Of a stretch of 64,000 nt of DNA, positions 696-56,423 are shown in pieces; position 1 is the stretch's first letter, and each line of letters opens with the position of its first letter. The notes beneath the pieces are model-generated. The model did not search any database and was not told the origin of the DNA. It worked only from the letters and a program-made list of their open reading frames with translations. Source of the DNA: Patescibacteria group bacterium (GTDB taxonomy: Bacteria; Patescibacteriota; Patescibacteriia; PEXW01); assembly GCA_041671325.1 (NCBI GenBank), contig JBAZBR010000004.1, forward strand, positions 4,004 to 68,003, written 5' to 3'. The position numbers were made by a program, and so were the translations under genes.

Positions 696-767
696 GCCCA
701 GGTGGTGAAATTGCCGTGAACCACTAAAGGGTTCACGGCGACCCAGCACCCTTTAGTGGTGCTGGGT
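696..767 (+). repeat. Duplicated 5' fragment of tRNA-Leu (18 nt) fused to a ~54-nt double-hairpin insert, forming a tRNA-like folded segment
   Basis: The 18 nt at 696-713 (GCCCAGGTGGTGAAATTG) are identical to positions 1-18 of the intact tRNA-Leu at 1045. Two hairpins follow, CCGTGAAC...GTTCACGG and CCCAGCACC...GGTGCTGGG, whose loops ACTAAAGGG and CCCTTTAGT are mutual reverse complements. The sequence then resumes as GGTATAC, matching tRNA positions 19 onward. Confidence 0.45.
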
Positions 768-783
768 GGTATACGCGCAAAAT

Positions 784-1038
784 ATGCATTATATTTACAT
801 CTTACAATTATCGAATAAACAACTTTACTGCGGTATTACCTTGGACTTGAAAAGGAGGCTTGCTGAACACAAGAAAGGAAAGAGTCCATTCACGAAAAAT
901 AGATTGCCGTTGAAGCTGATTTTTTACGAAGCCTTTAATAATAAGTTAGACGCCGAAAAAAGAGAAAGATATTTTAAGTCTAGTAAGGGCAAATATACGT
1001 TACGGGCAATGCTGAAGTTCACTTTACAAAATGTTTAA
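784..1038 (+). CDS. GIY-YIG nuclease family protein (small, YhbQ/UPF0213-like)
   Basis: YIYIL...LYCGITLDLKRRLAEH is the canonical GIY-YIG N-terminal motif. The ORF track starts at a GTG at 766; the ATG at 784 (MHYIYIL) is the more likely start. Confidence 0.75.
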   Translation: MHYIYILQLSNKQLYCGITLDLKRRLAEHKKGKSPFTKNRLPLKLIFYEAFNNKLDAEKRERYFKSSKGKYTLRAMLKFTLQNV

Positions 1039-1044
1039 ATTAAT

Positions 1045-1129
1045 GCCCAGGTGGTGAAATTGGTATACACGCGAGGTTTAGGACCTCGTGCCGCAAGGCG
1101 TGGAGGTTCGAGTCCTCTCCTGGGCACCA
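1045..1129 (+). tRNA. tRNA-Leu (anticodon TAG), with encoded CCA
   Basis: Cloverleaf read by hand: acceptor GCCCAGG/CCTGGGC, D-arm GTGA...CAC, anticodon stem CGAGG/CCTCG with loop TTTAGGA (anticodon TAG). A long variable arm TGCCGCAAGGCGT and T-arm GGAGG-TTCGAGT-CCTCT follow, then discriminator A and CCA. Confidence 0.85.
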
Positions 1130-1200
1130 GCTCGTTTCGTGCTTCGACCTTCGTGAGCGCGCTTACGCTTGCTCACTCCGGACTTTGCACGAAGCCTCGC
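1130..1200 (+). ncRNA. Conserved structured element immediately 3' of a tRNA (copy 1 of 2)
   Basis: GCTCGTTTCGTGCTTC...GTGAGCGCGCTTACGCTTGCTCAC...GCACGAAGCCTCGC. The outer stem is TTCGTGC/GCACGAA and the inner stem GTGAGC/GCTCAC. About 85% of it matches the sequence following tRNA-Arg at 45404-45475. Confidence 0.4.
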
Positions 1201-1279
1201 TTTTCCTCACGAATGCGTGCTCCTCACTTCGTTCGTGTGCTCCTCATTCGTGAGGTGGATTTTATAAGCGTCCCGCTCA

Positions 1280-1306
1280 CCCCATTTCATCTTCAACGAA
1301 ATGGGG
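1280..1306 (+). terminator. Hairpin closing the tRNA-Leu locus (CCCCATTTC...GAAATGGGG)
   Basis: A perfect 9-bp stem. A second 11-bp hairpin, CCTCACGAATG...CATTCGTGAGG, lies at 1206-1256. No strong T-tract follows, so termination is uncertain. Confidence 0.3.
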
Positions 1307-1341
1307 ACCCCAAGTCTGTGACATTATCATAAAAATAATTT

Positions 1342-6039: not shown

Positions 6040-6393
6040 TTATCCCGCGGCCTGGACCACGTTTTTGAAAACCGTGGAAAACAAAGTCCAGGAAACAATT
6101 ACCAAAAACATGCCAATGACTGCGCCGATAAGCAGTTTTCGGGAGTGCGTTTCCGAGTCTTCATTACCCCCAGCGGTAATCTTAACTATAATGCCGTAAA
6201 GGAGCATGACCGTTGAAACAACCCCGATTATGCCCAGAACCACGTTGGCAATACTGAAAAGGAAAGGCTTGATATCCAGCGTGTAAAGATTGGCTTGGGG
6301 CCCAATATTTTCCGTGGTAGTAGCCGCGACAATACGGGGCGATAAGTTGATTAATAAAGTAATTAAAAAGGGAAAGTATTTCTTTAGTTTCAT
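6040..6393 (-). CDS. VirB2/TrbC-like (type IV secretion-type) pilin family protein, divergent paralog
   Basis: Signal peptide, then two hydrophobic helices, with the AGGNED core shared with the next three genes. Confidence 0.45.
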   Translation of the reverse strand: MKLKKYFPFLITLLINLSPRIVAATTTENIGPQANLYTLDIKPFLFSIANVVLGIIGVVSTVMLLYGIIVKITAGGNEDSETHSRKLLIGAVIGMFLVIVSWTLFSTVFKNVVQAAG

Positions 6394-6459
6394 TTTTTAG
6401 ATAAAGCTTGGTTTACATAAAAAAGCCGTCAAAGTCGGTTTAGGCTTGAACAGAAAAAC

Positions 6460-6822
6460 TTAGTTAGTGACTTGGGCGGTCGTCTTTAGAACAAAGTTGA
6501 CGATTGCCCAAGAAAGCAGGACGACTATCAGGCCAACGACTGCCGAAGAGATCAGTCTTTTGGCCGTATCAGTTTTGTCCTCATTGCCGCCAGAAGTTGC
6601 CAAGGAAAAAACACCGTAAAGAATTACTACTAAGGCGATTAAACCCAATAAACCCAGAATAAAGCTAACAACATTCAAAATAGTTTGTTTCAGGTCTGTG
6701 GAAGTAAAACCCAGCGAGCCGGCAAAAGTCGTGTCAAAAGACACGGCCAAAGCCATGGCTGGCAGGGCTATAACGGTTAAGCTTATTAAGGTAGCAAAAA
6801 GGTATTTGTTAGGTTTTTTCAT
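6460..6822 (-). CDS. VirB2/TrbC-like pilin family protein (paralog 2)
   Basis: Signal peptide ending ...AMALA, then VSFDTTFAGSLGFTSTDLK, two TM helices and a GGNEDK motif. Confidence 0.5.
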   Translation of the reverse strand: MKKPNKYLFATLISLTVIALPAMALAVSFDTTFAGSLGFTSTDLKQTILNVVSFILGLLGLIALVVILYGVFSLATSGGNEDKTDTAKRLISSAVVGLIVVLLSWAIVNFVLKTTAQVTN

Positions 6823-7200
6823 TTATAATCCGCTTGGGCTCCCGGCTACTTGGTTGGCTGTTTTAAGCACAAAATTCACGATTGCCCAAGCCAGCAAGAC
6901 AATAACCAAACCAACTGAGGCTGAAGAAATTATCTGTTTGGCTTTGTCTACTTTGTCCTCATTGCCGCCTGCAGTCATCCAAATAAATCCAGCATAAAGA
7001 ATAAAGACAACGGCAATCAAGCCCAAGAGGCCTAAGACGAAGGTAATAACATTCAATACGGCCTGTTTTAAGTCTACCGAGGTAAAACCCAGCGAGCCGG
7101 CAAAAGTCGTGTCAAAAGACACGGCCATGGCAGCCATTGGCAAGGCTAGGCTAATTAATGACAAACCGAGAGCGGCAAGGTGTTTGTTAGTAAGTTTCAT
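6823..7200 (-). CDS. VirB2/TrbC-like pilin family protein (paralog 3)
   Basis: Same architecture. More than 70% identical to its neighbours in the VSFDTTFAGSLGFTS...LLAWAIVNFVLKT core. Confidence 0.5.
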   Translation of the reverse strand: MKLTNKHLAALGLSLISLALPMAAMAVSFDTTFAGSLGFTSVDLKQAVLNVITFVLGLLGLIAVVFILYAGFIWMTAGGNEDKVDKAKQIISSASVGLVIVLLAWAIVNFVLKTANQVAGSPSGL

Positions 7201-7305
7201 ATACCCTTATATTAACGCAATTTGCCGGAGAATTACAATAGCTATTACTAAAAACCCCCAGGTTTTAGCCGAAAGGGTTTTTAGTTTAATTAATAATTAT
7301 GTTAA

Positions 7306-7674
7306 TTAGGCGGTCACTTGATTGGTAGTCTTCAACACGAAGTTGACGATCGCCCAAGCCAGCAAAACCACAACTAAACCGATACAAGCTGAAGAAATGA
7401 TTTTCTTAGCTGAATCAACCTTATCTTCATTGCCACCCGCAGTCAGCCAGATAAAGCCACCGTAAAGAATCATGATAACCGCGATCAAGCCCAAGAGGCC
7501 TAATACAAAGGTAATCACGTTCAAAATCGTTGCCTTCAAATCAGTTGAAGTGAAGCCCAATGAACCGGCAAAAGTAGTATCAAAAGACACGGCTAAAGCC
7601 GCTATTGGTAAGGCCATTACACCCAGGGTTGCAGCGGTTGCAATTAAATATTTTTTGTTTAATTTCATAAACAC
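7306..7674 (-). CDS. VirB2/TrbC-like pilin family protein (paralog 4)
   Basis: Same architecture as the previous three genes. Confidence 0.5.
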   Translation of the reverse strand: MFMKLNKKYLIATAATLGVMALPIAALAVSFDTTFAGSLGFTSTDLKATILNVITFVLGLLGLIAVIMILYGGFIWLTAGGNEDKVDSAKKIISSACIGLVVVLLAWAIVNFVLKTTNQVTA

Positions 7675-7865
7675 ACCCCCTTTCCGATTTTTCGGTATAT
7701 TAGTCTAATCTAATTAAATCTTAGCTTATTTTGCTTAAAAGTCAAAGCTTTTAAACAGGTTATTGTACGCTTATTCAGAAAATAAATCAAGCCCCCAGGT
7801 TATTAGGGAAAAGTGGTAAAAAAATGAGTTTTTTGTCTTAACTTAGCTAAAAATTAGGATTTTAG

Positions 7866-8100
7866 GGTCCCCGTAAATCAGGCGCGCAAGCCCGCGAAAG
7901 CGGGATGAGCACGGATTTACGGGGAGAGGGGCACACTAATAGGGTCCCCACGAACGAGTAGCGGACCCCGCGGCCGCGGGGGAGTACGCATCTGCGGGGA
8001 GAGGGGCACTAAAAGGCTTTCTAAGAATAGGGGTCCCCATAAACGTGGCACGGAGCGGAGCGAGTACGCGTTTATGGGGAAAAGCGGCACATTTGTGGAG
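7866..8100. repeat. Three tandem ~77-88-nt hairpin units with conserved GGGTCCCC and GGGGAGAGGGGCAC flanks
   Basis: Unit stems are CCCCGTAAATC/GATTTACGGGG and CCCCATAAACG/CGTTTATGGGG; the middle unit is degenerate. The array lies in a divergent intergenic region, and the overlapping minus-strand ORF 7917-8114 looks spurious. Confidence 0.5.
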
Positions 8101-8324
8101 TCTGGAGTGGCCAAACGTTCAGTTTGGACACGAAAGGCGGAACAAATGTTGACGCGTGCGCCGTCGCGCCGTCGCGGTTTTATCGTGGATAACTCGGCCT
8201 TTTTTTGCCAAAACCTGTGTTAGCCTTAATTTAGTCAGTAAACAAACGCCATTCATTTCAATCCTGGAAAGGAGGTGAGTGGCATAACTAAAACCGTTCT
8301 TTTTAAACTGAAAGGAGAATCCAA

Positions 8325-20731: not shown

Positions 20732-20884
20732 TGTCATCCCGAGCCTTGCCGACCTGCCCGCCGAACTAGCATGGTCCAGCCTTCGCAGCCGCTTCGGCGG
20801 AGTAGGCCAGGCGGGGGGATCCCGATAAGATAACCCGAGATTCCCCCACTCGCCCTCGAAGACTCGGGCTCGATCGGAATGACA
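20732..20884. repeat. MITE/REP-like imperfect palindromic element (TGTCATCCCGAGCC...GGCTCGATCGGAATGACA)
   Basis: The terminal inverted repeats were read directly. The internal GACCTGCCCGCC motif is shared (as a reverse complement) with the elements at 27025 and 35837. Confidence 0.55.
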
Positions 20885-20895
20885 GAAGGATCATA

Positions 20896-21195
20896 ATGAC
20901 ACGTAATAATACGAGAAAGCACAAATATTATGTTTATATGATGGCAAGCAAGAGTGGCGTGTTGTATATTGGCGTAACAAATAGTTTGATACACAGAGTT
21001 CTTGAACATAAAAACGGTTTGGTCGAAGGATTTACTAAAAAGTATAAATGCCAAAAACTGGTTTACTATGAAGAAACCGATGATATTAGTGCGGCAATCG
21101 CCAGAGAGAAACAATTAAAAAAATGGCGAAGAGAAAAGAAAGTTAAATTGATAGATACAATTAATCCGGGTTGGAAAGATTTAAGCGAGGAATAA
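20896..21195 (+). CDS. GIY-YIG nuclease family protein
   Basis: YYVYMMASKSGVLYIGVTNSLIHRVLEHKNG contains the GIY-YIG motif. The gene is flanked on both sides by MITE-like elements. Confidence 0.7.
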   Translation: MTRNNTRKHKYYVYMMASKSGVLYIGVTNSLIHRVLEHKNGLVEGFTKKYKCQKLVYYEETDDISAAIAREKQLKKWRREKKVKLIDTINPGWKDLSEE

Positions 21196-26867: not shown

Positions 26868-27010
26868 GTCCCTCTCCCTCTGGGAGAGGGTGCCGGAGGC
26901 GGTGGTGCCTGCCCGCCGTACTTCGTCTGGCGAAGGCAGGCGGGAGGGTTACTCGGAAATACAAATTATATCGTGAACCTCACCCCAGCCCTCTCCTATA
27001 TAGGAGAGGG
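26868..27010. repeat. Hairpin-pair repeat element (CCCTCTCCCTCTGGGAGAGGG ... CCCTCTCCTATATAGGAGAGGG)
   Basis: Two matching GGGAGAGGG-type hairpins bracket a GC-rich core. The overlapping ORF 26835-27044 is probably spurious. Confidence 0.45.
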
Positions 27011-35758: not shown

Positions 35759-35836
35759 TTATGCTCCTTTGTTAAAATTTCATTTTTTGTTTCAAAAAAA
35801 CTTAACACAGCATTTTGCTGGTGTCAATGGCTTCTC

Positions 35837-35998
35837 TGTCATTGCGAGCGACTCCGCCGCCGCGGGGAGGAGTGCGGCAGTCTCAAAAGAAATGGGAGAT
35901 TGCTCCCGCCTGGCCTACTCCGCTGAAGCGGCTGCGAAGGCTGGACCTCGCCAAGGCGAGTACGGCGGGCAGGTCGTCTCTGCCTACGGCAGATCCTC
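35837..35998. repeat. MITE/REP-like palindromic element (TGTCATTGCGAGCGAC...GATCCTCGCAATAACA)
   Basis: Terminal inverted repeats plus the CTCGCCAAGGCGAG and GGCGGGCAGGTCG core shared with 27025 and 20732. Confidence 0.55.
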
Positions 35999-36044
35999 GC
36001 AATAACAATGGGAATTTAGCGGTAAAGACTTTTTAATTAAATGA

Positions 36045-45233: not shown

Positions 45234-45316
45234 GCGCCCGTAGCTCAACGGATAGAGTATTGGCCTCCCTCCGGGCCGTTGACCCGTAGGGCCAGAGGCC
45301 GAAGCCTAAAAATCTA
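45234..45316 (+). other. Pseudo-tRNA: partial duplicate of the 5' portion of tRNA-Arg with a ~30-nt insertion and no T-arm or 3' acceptor
   Basis: GCGCCCGTAGCTCAACGGATAGAGTATTGGCCTCC...CCGAAGCCT parallels the first 47 nt of the downstream tRNA-Arg (GTCCCCATAGCTTAACGGATAAAGCGTAGGCCTCCGAAGCCT). No pairing partner for the acceptor 5' strand was found. Confidence 0.3.
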
Positions 45317-45328
45317 ATTAATTATACT

Positions 45329-45403
45329 GTCCCCATAGCTTAACGGATAAAGCGTAGGCCTCCGAAGCCTGAGATTGAGGTTCAATTCCTCATGGGGGCA
45401 CCA
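45329..45403 (+). tRNA. tRNA-Arg (anticodon CCG), with encoded CCA
   Basis: Hand-folded: acceptor GTCCCCA/TGGGGGC, D-arm GCTT-AACGGATA-AAGC, anticodon stem TAGGC/GCCTG with loop CTCCGAA (CCG), T-arm TGAGG-TTCAATT-CCTCA, then A-CCA. Confidence 0.8.
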
Positions 45404-45475
45404 GCTCGTTTCGTGCTTCACCCTGCGTGAGCGCGCTTTTCGCTTGCTCACTTCAGGTTACGCACGAAGCCTCGC
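45404..45475 (+). ncRNA. Conserved structured element immediately 3' of a tRNA (copy 2 of 2)
   Basis: GCTCGTTTCGTGCTTCACCCTGCGTGAGCGCGCTTTTCGCTTGCTCAC...GCACGAAGCCTCGC has the same nested stems as the copy at 1130-1200. A terminator-like hairpin follows at 45549-45585 (CCCCAATTTTTTATTAAAAAATTGGGG). Confidence 0.4.
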
Positions 45476-45690
45476 ATTCCCGACAAACCCGTACTCGCTC
45501 CGCTGCGTTCCTGGTTTGTCGGGTCAGGTTTCACAAACGTGTCGCTTACCCCAATTTTTTATTAAAAAATTGGGGCCCCCCGGGTTTTAGTTTGCTTTTT
45601 TATCCTTAAAGAGAGAAAATAAAAAGGCACACCCTTAAACAAATAAGGGTTTAAAGCATTACAAAATCTCAATAATTAACCAAAATAATT

Positions 45691-55298: not shown

Positions 55299-55931
55299 AT
55301 GACTCAGCGGCGTATATACCAAGATGAATTTCCATATTTCGTAACTTTTCGGACGCTTGATAGCCAACCCTTGTTTGAGGATGAAAAAATGGCGGAGTTG
55401 TTTCGGCGCGAATTATTTGTATCGGCAAAAATCAAACATTTTGATATTTTTGCGTACCAAATAATGCCCGATCATATCCATGTTTTAACGCAAATAAATG
55501 TCGAGCGCACGCTTGAGAGCATGCGCTCGGGTGACTCGGGTGACGGGGATGGTGAAGATATCGTGAGCATGCGCTCGGGGGTTGGTAAAAATATTTTGTC
55601 ATCAAAACCCGAACGCACGTTCTCTAACGTGCGTGAGGGGGAAATCCACCCGATCTCCGCCAAAAGCACCCTTTCGAGGGTGCGGACCAAAACTCCCAAA
55701 TATAATATTTCCGATTTGATGCAATCCATCAAAGGCAATTTTTCCCGGAAAATCCATGAAGGCAATATTTGGCAAAAACGGTTTTATACCAAAATCGTGA
55801 ATACCCATAAATATTTGGAAACCGTGATTAATTATATTGAAAACAATCCAATCAAAGCGGAATTGCCGAAAAGATATCAACAAAAACCCTACCAATATTT
55901 CAATTGGCCGAAAATTCACGCCTTGTTTTGA
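55299..55931 (+). CDS. IS200/IS605-family Y1 (HuH) transposase-like protein, REP-associated tyrosine transposase candidate, with an in-frame low-complexity insertion
   Basis: MPDHIHVL carries the HuH motif. SDLMQSIKGNFSRKI...WQKRFY is the central IS200 block, and NYIENNP holds the catalytic Tyr. An extra ~70-aa Ser/Gly/Asp/Arg-rich segment is encoded by hairpin-forming DNA at 55500-55690. Confidence 0.65.
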   Translation: MTQRRIYQDEFPYFVTFRTLDSQPLFEDEKMAELFRRELFVSAKIKHFDIFAYQIMPDHIHVLTQINVERTLESMRSGDSGDGDGEDIVSMRSGVGKNILSSKPERTFSNVREGEIHPISAKSTLSRVRTKTPKYNISDLMQSIKGNFSRKIHEGNIWQKRFYTKIVNTHKYLETVINYIENNPIKAELPKRYQQKPYQYFNWPKIHALF

Positions 55932-56152: not shown

Positions 56153-56395
56153 ATGTATTACCTCTATATTTTGAAATGCAAGGATAAGACGCTTTATACC
56201 GGCATTACCACAGATTTAAAAAGGCGTTTAGCTGAACATAACTCATCAAAACTCGGGGCAAAATATACCAAAGGCCGGAGGCCGGTTAAGTTGGTTTATA
56301 CTAAAAAATTTCGAACTCGGTCTACAGCAACAAAGACAGAAGCACGGATAAAAAATTTATCGCGGACAGAGAAACTGCGTTTAATTAAAAAGTAG
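56153..56395 (+). CDS. GIY-YIG nuclease family protein
   Basis: MYYLYILKCKDKTLYTGITTDLKRRLAEH. The gene starts on the nucleotide after the upstream stop codon (taaATG). Confidence 0.75.
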   Translation: MYYLYILKCKDKTLYTGITTDLKRRLAEHNSSKLGAKYTKGRRPVKLVYTKKFRTRSTATKTEARIKNLSRTEKLRLIKK

Positions 56396-56423
56396 GATTT
56401 TGTAAAAATAGATAAAAACATTC

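Follow-up and report, generated by a model that had tools for sequence, protein, structure and literature searches.

An apparently undescribed family of structured modules tied to tRNA 3' ends in Patescibacteria

The two tRNA genes on a 64,000-nucleotide stretch of Patescibacteria DNA (contig JBAZBR010000004.1, positions 4,004 to 68,003 of the forward strand; hereafter the window) are each followed, from the first base after their encoded CCA, by the same succession of GC-rich hairpins. These hairpins belong to an apparently undescribed family of structured modules tied to tRNA 3' ends in Patescibacteria. Its members lie on the strand of the tRNA, mostly directly behind it, and their helices covary; they serve as spacers in tRNA arrays and turn over between tRNA loci. 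The window is part of a 158-kb metagenome contig (ENA ERZ27249449), and its proteins match Parcubacteria/Patescibacteria.

Exactly two tRNAs, a tRNA-Leu(TAG) and a tRNA-Arg(CCG), are called in the window by ARAGORN and Rfam, and no further tRNA was found within 8.6 kb past its right end (L062; numbers of this form denote the loci that we collected). At both tRNAs the first base of the leading hairpin, H1, is position +1 after CCA (1130 for Leu, 45404 for Arg). The features at the two sites are as follows.

1045-1129, plus strand: tRNA-Leu(TAG) with encoded CCA (ARAGORN; Rfam tRNA, 55.9 bits)
1130-1200, plus strand: H1 copy 1, a nested hairpin with outer stem 1134-1142/1187-1195 (sequence, fold)
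1201-1259, plus strand: H2 copy 1, with an 11-bp stem 1205-1215/1245-1255, a conserved inner helix of CGUGC/G(U/C)GCU type and a variable tip (fold, alignments)
1260-1312, plus strand: 3'-half remnant of the variant first hairpin H1', then H3 (stem 1280-1288/1298-1306, CCCCATTTC..GAAATGGGG, followed by ACCCC; alignment, fold)
45329-45403, plus strand: tRNA-Arg(CCG) with encoded CCA (ARAGORN; Rfam, 64.5 bits)
45404-45475, plus strand: H1 copy 2, with outer stem 45408-45416/45462-45470 (sequence, fold)
45476-45527, plus strand: H2 copy 2, with stem 45479-45489/45513-45523 (fold, comparison with copy 1)
45528-45585, plus strand: 3'-half remnant of H1', then H3 (stem 45549-45560/45564-45575), followed by a T-rich stretch (fold, alignment)

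The two H1 copies (71-72 nt) are about 85% identical and share identical blocks of 19, 13, 12 and 14 bases. A 35-nt pattern drawn from them, with 6 free positions and up to 3 mismatches, matched only these two sites in the window, where 0 matches are expected (100 shuffles). Fold prediction gives the outer stem GUUUCGUGC/GCACGAAGC in both copies, enclosing a short middle helix and then the inner stem GUGAGCG/GCUCAC; GCTC and CTCGC flank the hairpin. The initial annotation had placed a shared nested hairpin directly 3' of both tRNAs, and its description, coordinates and predicted fold were all borne out. Trailers of about 195 nt at the two sites have folding z-scores of -4.9 and -7.4. No called gene or open reading frame (ORF) of its own explains the trailer region of either copy. 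We rejected protein coding, as the ORFs in the trailers pass through the tRNAs, their frames differ between the two copies and no gene is called. Mechanical ORFs that traverse tRNA and module (1051-1332, 93 aa; 45375-45590, 71 aa) probably give rise to spurious 'hypothetical proteins' when such genomes are annotated.

H1 opens a larger unit than the one of about 70 nt first proposed: modules measure 125-190 nt and comprise two to three hairpins, H1 followed by one or more H2-class hairpins. At both window tRNAs the order is H1, H2, the remnant of H1' and H3; the remnant was recognised by alignment with the complete H1'-H3 modules at L037:6419 and L044:1207. What had been taken for divergent sequence after H1 is the homologous hairpin H2. 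Its 11-bp stems differ almost throughout between the window copies and are still complementary (CCTCACGAATG/CATTCGTGAGG against CCCGACAAACC/GGTTTGTCGGG), with 8 pairs altered on both sides. Differences between the copies had also been assigned mostly to loops, whereas many are compensated stem changes of this kind. The terminator-like hairpin reported after each copy does exist, as H3, but the H3 hairpins of the two copies are homologous, share the hairpin class of H2 (CCCC...GGGGACCCC) and belong to the trailer composite. H2 is flanked by TTT(N)CCCC and GGGGACCCC. The 5' junction of the module, CCA|G, shows no repeat of the flanking bases, and its 3' boundary is ragged, ending in ...GGGGACCCC(GAAGA..).

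The window holds more than the two copies first noticed. A third copy lies on the minus strand and is followed by further hairpins of the H2 class, upstream of a cluster of T4SS-pilin genes.

8030-8155, minus strand: third complete module copy, an H1'-like first hairpin (outer stem CAUUUGU/ACAAAUG) and H2, preceded by ..GGCGCAC (model R1 described below, 78 bits, E 1e-17; inverted-repeat match to copy 2)
7864-8029, minus strand: two more H2-class hairpins in tandem (CCCC..CGTRCTC..GGGGACCC; 39.7 bits for 7967-7864)

The T4SS-pilin paralogs, preceded by this tRNA-less module copy and the array of H2-class hairpins, are themselves in tandem at 6460-7674 (minus strand), with three repeats of about 300 nt and a fourth downstream at about 6120-6470.

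To find relatives we used a search pattern confined to the H1 outer stem, with both of its strands, and free of tRNA bases. One genome per species (GTDB) yielded 22 loci, and JGI metagenomes yielded 33. The genome loci comprised 12 of the window type, 6 with a palindromic repeat of Myxococcota and 4 singletons (L008, L014, L019, L023) that look like chance. Among the 12, H1 stands at tRNA end +1 in 10 and behind a duplicated tRNA 3' fragment in 2. We then built a covariance model, R1, on 16 copies and ran it on all collected sequence with a threshold of at least 60 bits. It identified 48 module copies in Patescibacteria genomes and metagenomes; the two tRNA-linked window copies score 135 bits (1130-1260) and 117 bits (45404-45528).

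H1 starts at tRNA end +1 in 34 of the 48 copies (32 at offset 0), which together span 22 isoacceptors and 14 amino acids. Ten further copies follow a relic or duplicated tRNA 3' end that terminates in CCA. CCA directly precedes 44 of the 47 evaluable copies; three lack it, and one copy is cut by a contig end. The strand of the module is that of the tRNA in all cases. Within loci selected for containing a module, 34 of 67 tRNAs bear one. The initial annotation had preferred a conserved, structured, tRNA-linked trailer to a coincidental duplication, and had named a motif search and a covariance model as the ways to decide; both favour the trailer, as the motif nearly always abuts a tRNA 3' end and covariation is strong.

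A distribution across phyla was considered and rejected: loci labelled Gammaproteobacteria or Anaerolineaceae have tRNAs identical to those of Patescibacteria metagenome-assembled genomes (MAGs), and we did not trust these labels. MAGs of Myxococcales/Polyangiales (L009, L010, L012, L022, L025, L027) carry a palindromic repeat of about 150 bp, AAACAGCAT...ATGCGACGCTGTTT, with the GTGCTCAC/CGTTCCGC motifs and the outer stem of H1 at its centre. This repeat is not located at tRNA 3' ends and scores about 25 bits with R1; its resemblance to the module may be convergent.

Base changes in the family are distributed as expected for a maintained fold. A MAFFT alignment of 16 copies showed compensatory changes, with both sides altered, in 22 of the 35 predicted pairs. 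The alignment of 48 copies, which was fitted to the model so that its figures lean toward structure, had 93.4% of cells paired and double changes in 31 of the 35 pairs (262 cells). The margin is still large, with 0 of 500 shuffles reaching these pairing values and slid-partner controls pairing at 35-51%. Compensated outer-stem changes were also found in the copies known from the model only and in the H1' variant.

Conservation is uneven along the module. The outer helix of H1 is conserved and its inner helix variable, with at least two inner variants; in H2 it is the outer helix that varies, while the inner helix CGUGC/GCGCG is conserved beneath a variable tip. G at +1 is present in all 16 hand-aligned copies and in about 90% of the 48, and a U.G wobble occurs in the H1 outer stem of 46 of 47 copies. 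The GCUC linker and the CGUGCUC/GCGCC helices are conserved as well, and the loops are the least conserved parts. An alternative pairing of the H2 CGUGC with the H1 GCACG was rejected, because copies with CGAGC/GCUCG in H1 retain CGUGC in H2.

Syntenic copies allow the same comparison at single loci. The Val modules of L036 and L026 differ by 4 double changes, 1 single change and 1 lost pair, and the window copy at tRNA-Arg differs from those of L004/L005 by 8 double changes. As syntenic copies differ mostly by compensated changes, the fold is maintained in place, and the alignments clearly point to selection as what keeps it.

We also looked at how modules are arranged relative to neighbouring genes. 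Two arrays (L036 and L026) read Arg-module-11 nt-Val-module-12 nt-Ala-module, and shorter ones read Lys-module-Arg-module (L020) and Met-module-Leu-module (L050). Modules in L044 follow the tRNAs of a cluster that starts just downstream of a 16S 3' end, and at L038:2490-3162 (minus strand) a single strand carries, in head-to-tail order, a tRNA-Tyr, a module and the RNase P RNA gene. The modules fill inter-tRNA spacers of 130-150 nt and leave 11-16 nt to the next tRNA. This distance has no room for a promoter, which suggests that modules in arrays are transcribed with the tRNAs. Because stable GC-rich hairpins start 4 nt past CCA, exonucleases coming from downstream would be stopped before the tRNA 3' end, whose release would then call for an endonuclease that cuts at or near CCA|G.

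Comparison of related loci revealed both gain and loss of modules. An identical 77-nt tRNA-Val(GAC) is followed by a full module in L044, by its first 9 nt only in L043 and by none in L057; the L043 remnant looks like an imprecise deletion rather than a clean excision. The tRNA-Arg(CCG) locus is similarly variable. In L004, H1-H2 comes directly after CCA and has the compensated outer stem UUCGAGC/GCUCGAA. In L005, H1-H2 has been moved 4.8 kb from the tRNA by an inserted segment with inverted-repeat bounds, the right end of which gives ...TGCACCA immediately before H1. The closest relative, L002, whose tRNA-Arg is identical to that of the window at 70 of 73 bases, has no module.

Module variants do not always follow the tRNA that they stand behind. 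Identical tRNA-Arg(TCG) genes have different H1 variants, and so do identical tRNA-Thr genes. The nearest relative of the window Leu copy is found behind a tRNA-Thr (86%), those of the Arg copy behind Leu-GAG (90%) and Val-GAC (83%), and neither window copy has the other as its closest relative. The composite H1-H2-(H1' remnant)-H3 is found behind Leu-TAG, Arg-CCG and Val-GAC, and so must have been copied from locus to locus as a unit. Other copies, at syntenic sites, have been inherited in place (Ala-CGC, 91%; Val-TAC, 82%). Judging from these similarities, the family is the product of vertical descent together with copying between tRNA loci, by transposition or gene conversion; in the latter case, homology would be provided by the tRNA 3' end and the conserved helices.

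Of the explanations considered, which overlap, we give about even chances to the following: the module is a co-transcribed, self-folding tRNA 3' trailer or spacer that is cut at CCA|G and owes its spread to recombination or transposition at tRNA 3' ends. Its RNA would be made within the tRNA precursor and fold independently into stable GC-rich hairpins. An endonucleolytic cut at CCA|G would separate it from the tRNA and yield a mature CCA end and a hairpin RNA of about 130 nt. Such a self-contained spacer would leave the folding and processing of the tRNA undisturbed, and it may benefit the host by shielding the CCA end or insulating neighbouring genes. The family would persist through selection on the fold of each copy, while copies are gained, lost and copied from one tRNA locus to another, through recombination or transposition events that would take the tRNA 3' end and conserved helices of the module as anchors.

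Several observations weigh against this explanation. The module is dispensable at individual tRNAs, as identical tRNAs occur with and without it; this, together with the share of tRNAs that carry one, makes a required role in processing unlikely. Well-folded copies persist where inserts that start with a terminator-like hairpin have cut them off from the tRNA (L054, L055), and no tRNA is called at the third window copy (8155-8030, minus strand). Transcription and processing at CCA|G we infer from gene layout only. A strand test on G.U and A.C counts was ambiguous: besides the invariant U.G, the copies have 42 A.C/C.A mismatches against 21 G.U pairs, which gives no preference for RNA over hairpins at the DNA level. 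The GC content of modules (56-71%, against 43% for the host window) and their close similarity across genomes of differing composition fit a mobile element as well as a constrained RNA. Finally, most loci were retrieved by the fixed outer-stem pattern, which inflates the apparent conservation of that stem and samples one subfamily.

Some of these points lead to the possibility, in our view less likely, that the module is selfish DNA, a hairpin repeat of REP/REPIN, MITE or IS200/IS605-PATE type that a single-strand HUH transposase inserts 3' of a tRNA ...CCA, its transcription being incidental. Variable presence at identical tRNAs and related copies behind unrelated tRNAs would be expected of mobile DNA, but syntenic arrays retain their modules with compensated changes, and the L043 remnant resembles an imprecise deletion. 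Two hairpins, placed always 3' of a fixed short sequence and without target duplication, recall the ends of IS200/IS605; a target of 3-4 nt, however, predicts many insertions away from tRNAs, where nearly all copies follow a tRNA 3' end. The elevated GC content, the excess of A.C mismatches over G.U pairs, the existence of a tRNA-less copy and of tandem H2 units, and the Myxococcota palindromic repeat with the same outer stem and loop motifs also agree with this account, against which stand the low number of copies (three in 64 kb) and the absence of tags such as GTAG and CGTC.

A candidate enzyme is encoded in the window.

55299-55931: gene for RAYT, REP-associated tyrosine transposase (NCBIfam REP_Tyr_transpos, 85 bits, cut-off 80)

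Patescibacteria commonly encode homologues of RAYT. The 160 nt on either side of the window gene and of three homologues in the loci of two relatives (L063/L064) contained no H1- or H2-type hairpins, the model matched nothing in those loci, and no module was found within 10 kb of these three homologues. A link between RAYT and the module is not supported by these searches. The middle third of the RAYT protein (about residues 69-137) consists of variable ERT(L/F)S.VRS-like repeats encoded by GC-rich palindromes, also present in the Patescibacteria homologues, and a similar GC-rich stretch lies just past the window end (L062:5433-5642). Scans of viral contigs for a phage origin of the module gave 0 matches.

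The module could instead be specialised for the CCA end itself, which we think unlikely in either of two forms. It may be an RNA that specifies the CCA|G cut, by self-cleavage or by recruiting a nuclease to the entry formed by GCUC and the following helix, and would then define tRNA 3' ends in arrays. Alternatively, the module may be mobile and target the first base past CCA whatever the tRNA gene, with an HUH single-strand transposase as one conceivable vehicle and reverse transcription with a template switch onto tRNA 3' ends as another. In either form, if true, it would parallel in bacteria those elements of eukaryotes that are directed to tRNA genes or descend from them.

Slightly less probable still is a functional RNA made by tRNA processing, either a stable hairpin RNA or protein-binding scaffold (like the Escherichia coli RNAs rtT and 3'ETS-leuZ, discussed below) or a cis-acting RNA that sets the CCA|G cut. 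Exact registration with CCA and the conserved G+1, GCUC linker, U.G wobble and CGUGCUC/GCGCC helices would suit such a role, but the loops are least conserved and the architecture is loose, with extra or missing hairpins and mosaics. Expression in arrays would be stoichiometric with the tRNAs, and the fold is maintained in syntenic copies; against this, individual tRNAs do without the module, and no ribozyme or small RNA family in Rfam matched it, even at E<=10. The small RNA released by RNase Z that the initial annotation suggested is compatible with the gene layout.

The two window tRNAs are preceded by fragments of older tRNA genes. Upstream of tRNA-Leu, the first 18 nt of an older tRNA-Leu run into an insert of two hairpins in the D-loop, after which the old sequence resumes for 11 nt. 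The arms of the hairpin at 739-767 are those that bracket a tRNA-Ala in L026, here with nothing between them. Upstream of tRNA-Arg, the intact gene is of the L002 allele and the relic of the L004/L005 allele.

696-778, plus strand: relic of an older tRNA-Leu, with its 5' 18 nt (696-713; 18/18 bases identical), a 54-nt two-hairpin D-loop insert (714-767) and then GGTATACGCGC
784-1038, plus strand: GIY-YIG nuclease ORF of 84 aa, between relic and intact tRNA-Leu (Pfam PF01541, E 1.3e-15)
45234-45316, plus strand: internally deleted relic tRNA-Arg of L004/L005 allele type (32/35 bases match the 5' half of the L004 tRNA-Arg; TCCCTCCGGGC matches the 3' part of the L005 tRNA)

Relics are common in related loci, with 11 strict matches around 70 tRNAs and additional diverged ones. 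New tRNA genes sit within old ones, in the D-loop or anticodon stem, and are bracketed by pairing leader and trailer arms whose sequence varies from case to case. From these nested arrangements, the 5' relics arise through insertion of new tRNA genes into old ones. The upstream fragments that the initial annotation had counted as one part of a tripartite module are thus real, but they and the trailer are two separate phenomena, since relics occur with or without a trailer and most trailer copies lack a 5' relic. Nested or adjacent relics were observed at 696-1044 and 45234-45328 in the window and at L026:4860-5101, L044:900-1322 and L057:230-1640; some such inserts have the conserved 5' end CCCCGTCnnnnGACGGGGTARAGTCCGMGCGCC.

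The position of the GIY-YIG ORF at 784-1038 recalls the free-standing homing endonucleases that phages have in their tRNA regions. This ORF is one of three small GIY-YIG ORFs of about 84-99 aa in the window (with 20896-21195 and 56153-56400), and the homologues in related loci are not consistently near tRNAs or modules. A group I intron carrying this ORF at tRNA-Leu was rejected: the downstream tRNA is complete, and the gap between relic and tRNA is about 330 nt including the 255-nt ORF. Directly upstream of one GIY-YIG ORF lies a copy of another GC-rich repeat family, found in the window at 20735-20885, 35820-36005 and 26880-26960, with ends like GTCATTGCGAG...CTCGCAATAAC and a 43-nt inverted match of 98% between 20773-20815 and 35905-35947.

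At further loci, small structured inserts separate the CCA from a duplicate, 14-20 nt long, of the segment from T-loop to CCA (L018:6887-6996, L034:9537-9710 on the minus strand, L024:2059-2178, L054:82-241, L055:636-804 and L013:1639-1760). They fall into two or three families of 100-170 nt, one of which begins with a terminator-like hairpin. The largest insert, L005:12354-17170, is a 4.8-kb segment with terminal inverted repeats of about 150 nt, exactly between tRNA-Arg and module; its genes (HTH, the reverse transcriptase RVT_1, bAvd) identify a diversity-generating retroelement. In all insertion cases the module remains on the old tRNA 3' end.

These inserts bear on the idea, raised at the outset, that H1 is an att-like site, and more generally that the module is an arm or attachment site left behind by integrative elements with tRNA genes as their targets. 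tRNA 3' ends are insertion hot spots in these genomes, and inserts from 38 nt to 4.8 kb, one bearing a diversity-generating retroelement (L005), have the CCA on one side and 7-20 nt of duplicated tRNA 3' end on the other. What is targeted and duplicated, however, is the tRNA 3' end from T-loop to CCA, and H1 always stays outside the insert on the old tRNA fragment. Moreover, modules of one and the same family stand behind 22 isoacceptors, at odds with the tRNA specificity of integrase att sites, the called genes include no integrase nearby, and the covariation reflects selection on a fold rather than protein-binding repeats, all of which makes this explanation very improbable. The outer stem GTTTCGTGC/GCACGAAGC does not fit the R''/R' cores (RYYYAAC...GTTRRRY) of integron attC sites either.

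An even smaller chance is left for the module as the intrinsic transcription terminator of tRNA genes. Its hairpins are GC-rich, and in the window a T-rich run comes after H2 in copy 1 and after H3 in copy 2, but H1 has no U-tract behind it. Modules also stand between closely spaced tRNAs where a new promoter has no room, and a module co-transcribed in this way is not an efficient terminator. Separate canonical terminators come after the module, not before it, in L004, L005 and L015. A chance or recent local duplication without wider meaning, suggested by the mere two tRNA-linked copies visible in the window, is refuted by the 48 copies across dozens of independent assemblies, the 0 chance matches expected and the more distant kinship of the window copies to each other than to copies elsewhere, and has a negligible probability.

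Patescibacteria are a huge, uncultured group with tiny genomes. If the trailer explanation is true, they have a structured family locked to the nucleotide at many tRNA 3' ends and filling the spacers of tRNA arrays. Their cells would need a precise cut at CCA|G beside a very stable helix, which bears on tRNA maturation with a reduced set of RNases. The family would also be a clean, testable case of a non-coding repeat that spreads among tRNA loci with its fold retained. Together with the nested and replaced tRNA genes, the module points to an unusually active remodelling of tRNA loci in these genomes. Of practical value are a candidate RNA family with 48 members and strong covariation, and a lineage marker.

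Searches for known counterparts were largely negative. Rfam 15 gave only tRNA matches at gathering thresholds in the window and 23 related loci. At E<=10 none of its matches overlapped H1 or H2 at either site, and in the trailers there were only chance matches on the minus strand over H3, far below gathering. Neither the module sequences (exact search) nor a description of them were found in the searchable literature, and neither a classification of REPs (PMC3733652) nor a study of group I introns in Patescibacteria tRNAs (PMC13011429) mentions tRNA trailers.

REPs are palindromes of 20-40 nt, one end of which bears an unpaired tag, GTAG or CGTC (PMC3733652). Like the module, REP/REPIN sequences are short, GC-rich, imperfect palindromes outside genes that are kept as hairpins and occur singly or clustered and sometimes inside genes; they are transcribed, as the module is predicted to be. 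A RAYT gene is present in the window. REP/REPIN sequences differ in being tagged, in numbering tens to thousands of copies spread over many intergenic sites and in flanking RAYT. The module, at 125-190 nt with an H1 of 71 nt, is untagged in both H1 and H2, is fixed to the base after a tRNA CCA, does not flank RAYT and has three copies in the 64 kb of the window.

The miniatures of IS200/IS605 (PATEs) and MITEs such as RPE, Correia/NEMIS, ERIC and BOX are likewise non-coding, structured, interspersed repeats of 100-200 nt. Two hairpins, a fixed short sequence upstream (here CCA) and the lack of target duplication fit the pattern of IS200/IS605 ends. In the module, however, we found no terminal inverted repeats (neither end is an inverted copy of the other), no repeated flanking bases and no cognate transposase, nor any copy that carries one. 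A near-exclusive location at tRNA 3' ends over 22 isoacceptors is a known property of none of these families, and a 3-4-nt target leaves the restriction to tRNAs unexplained.

HDV-like ribozymes at the 5' end of R2 retrotransposons offer a conceptual lead only: there too an element lies within a highly expressed structural-RNA unit and has to be released exactly at its first nucleotide. The module matches no HDV, hatchet or other Rfam ribozyme model at E<=10, and its fold is two independent hairpins in which no double pseudoknot could be drawn.

Closer in layout are RNAs from the 3' external transcribed spacers of tRNAs. In E. coli these include rtT of the tyrT operon, a repeated unit, and 3'ETS-leuZ. 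As with the module, non-tRNA sequence lies directly downstream of a tRNA, and theirs is co-transcribed and released by tRNA processing. They are single-locus and species-specific, however, are not known to form a family across many tRNAs and genomes and have no sequence or Rfam similarity to the module. Murine gammaherpesvirus 68 has units of a tRNA-like gene and two pre-miRNA hairpins that are cut apart by RNase Z. These are eukaryotic and viral, made by RNA polymerase III and directed to the miRNA pathway, and the analogy is an architectural one only: the same layout of a tRNA fold and then two stable hairpins in one transcript.

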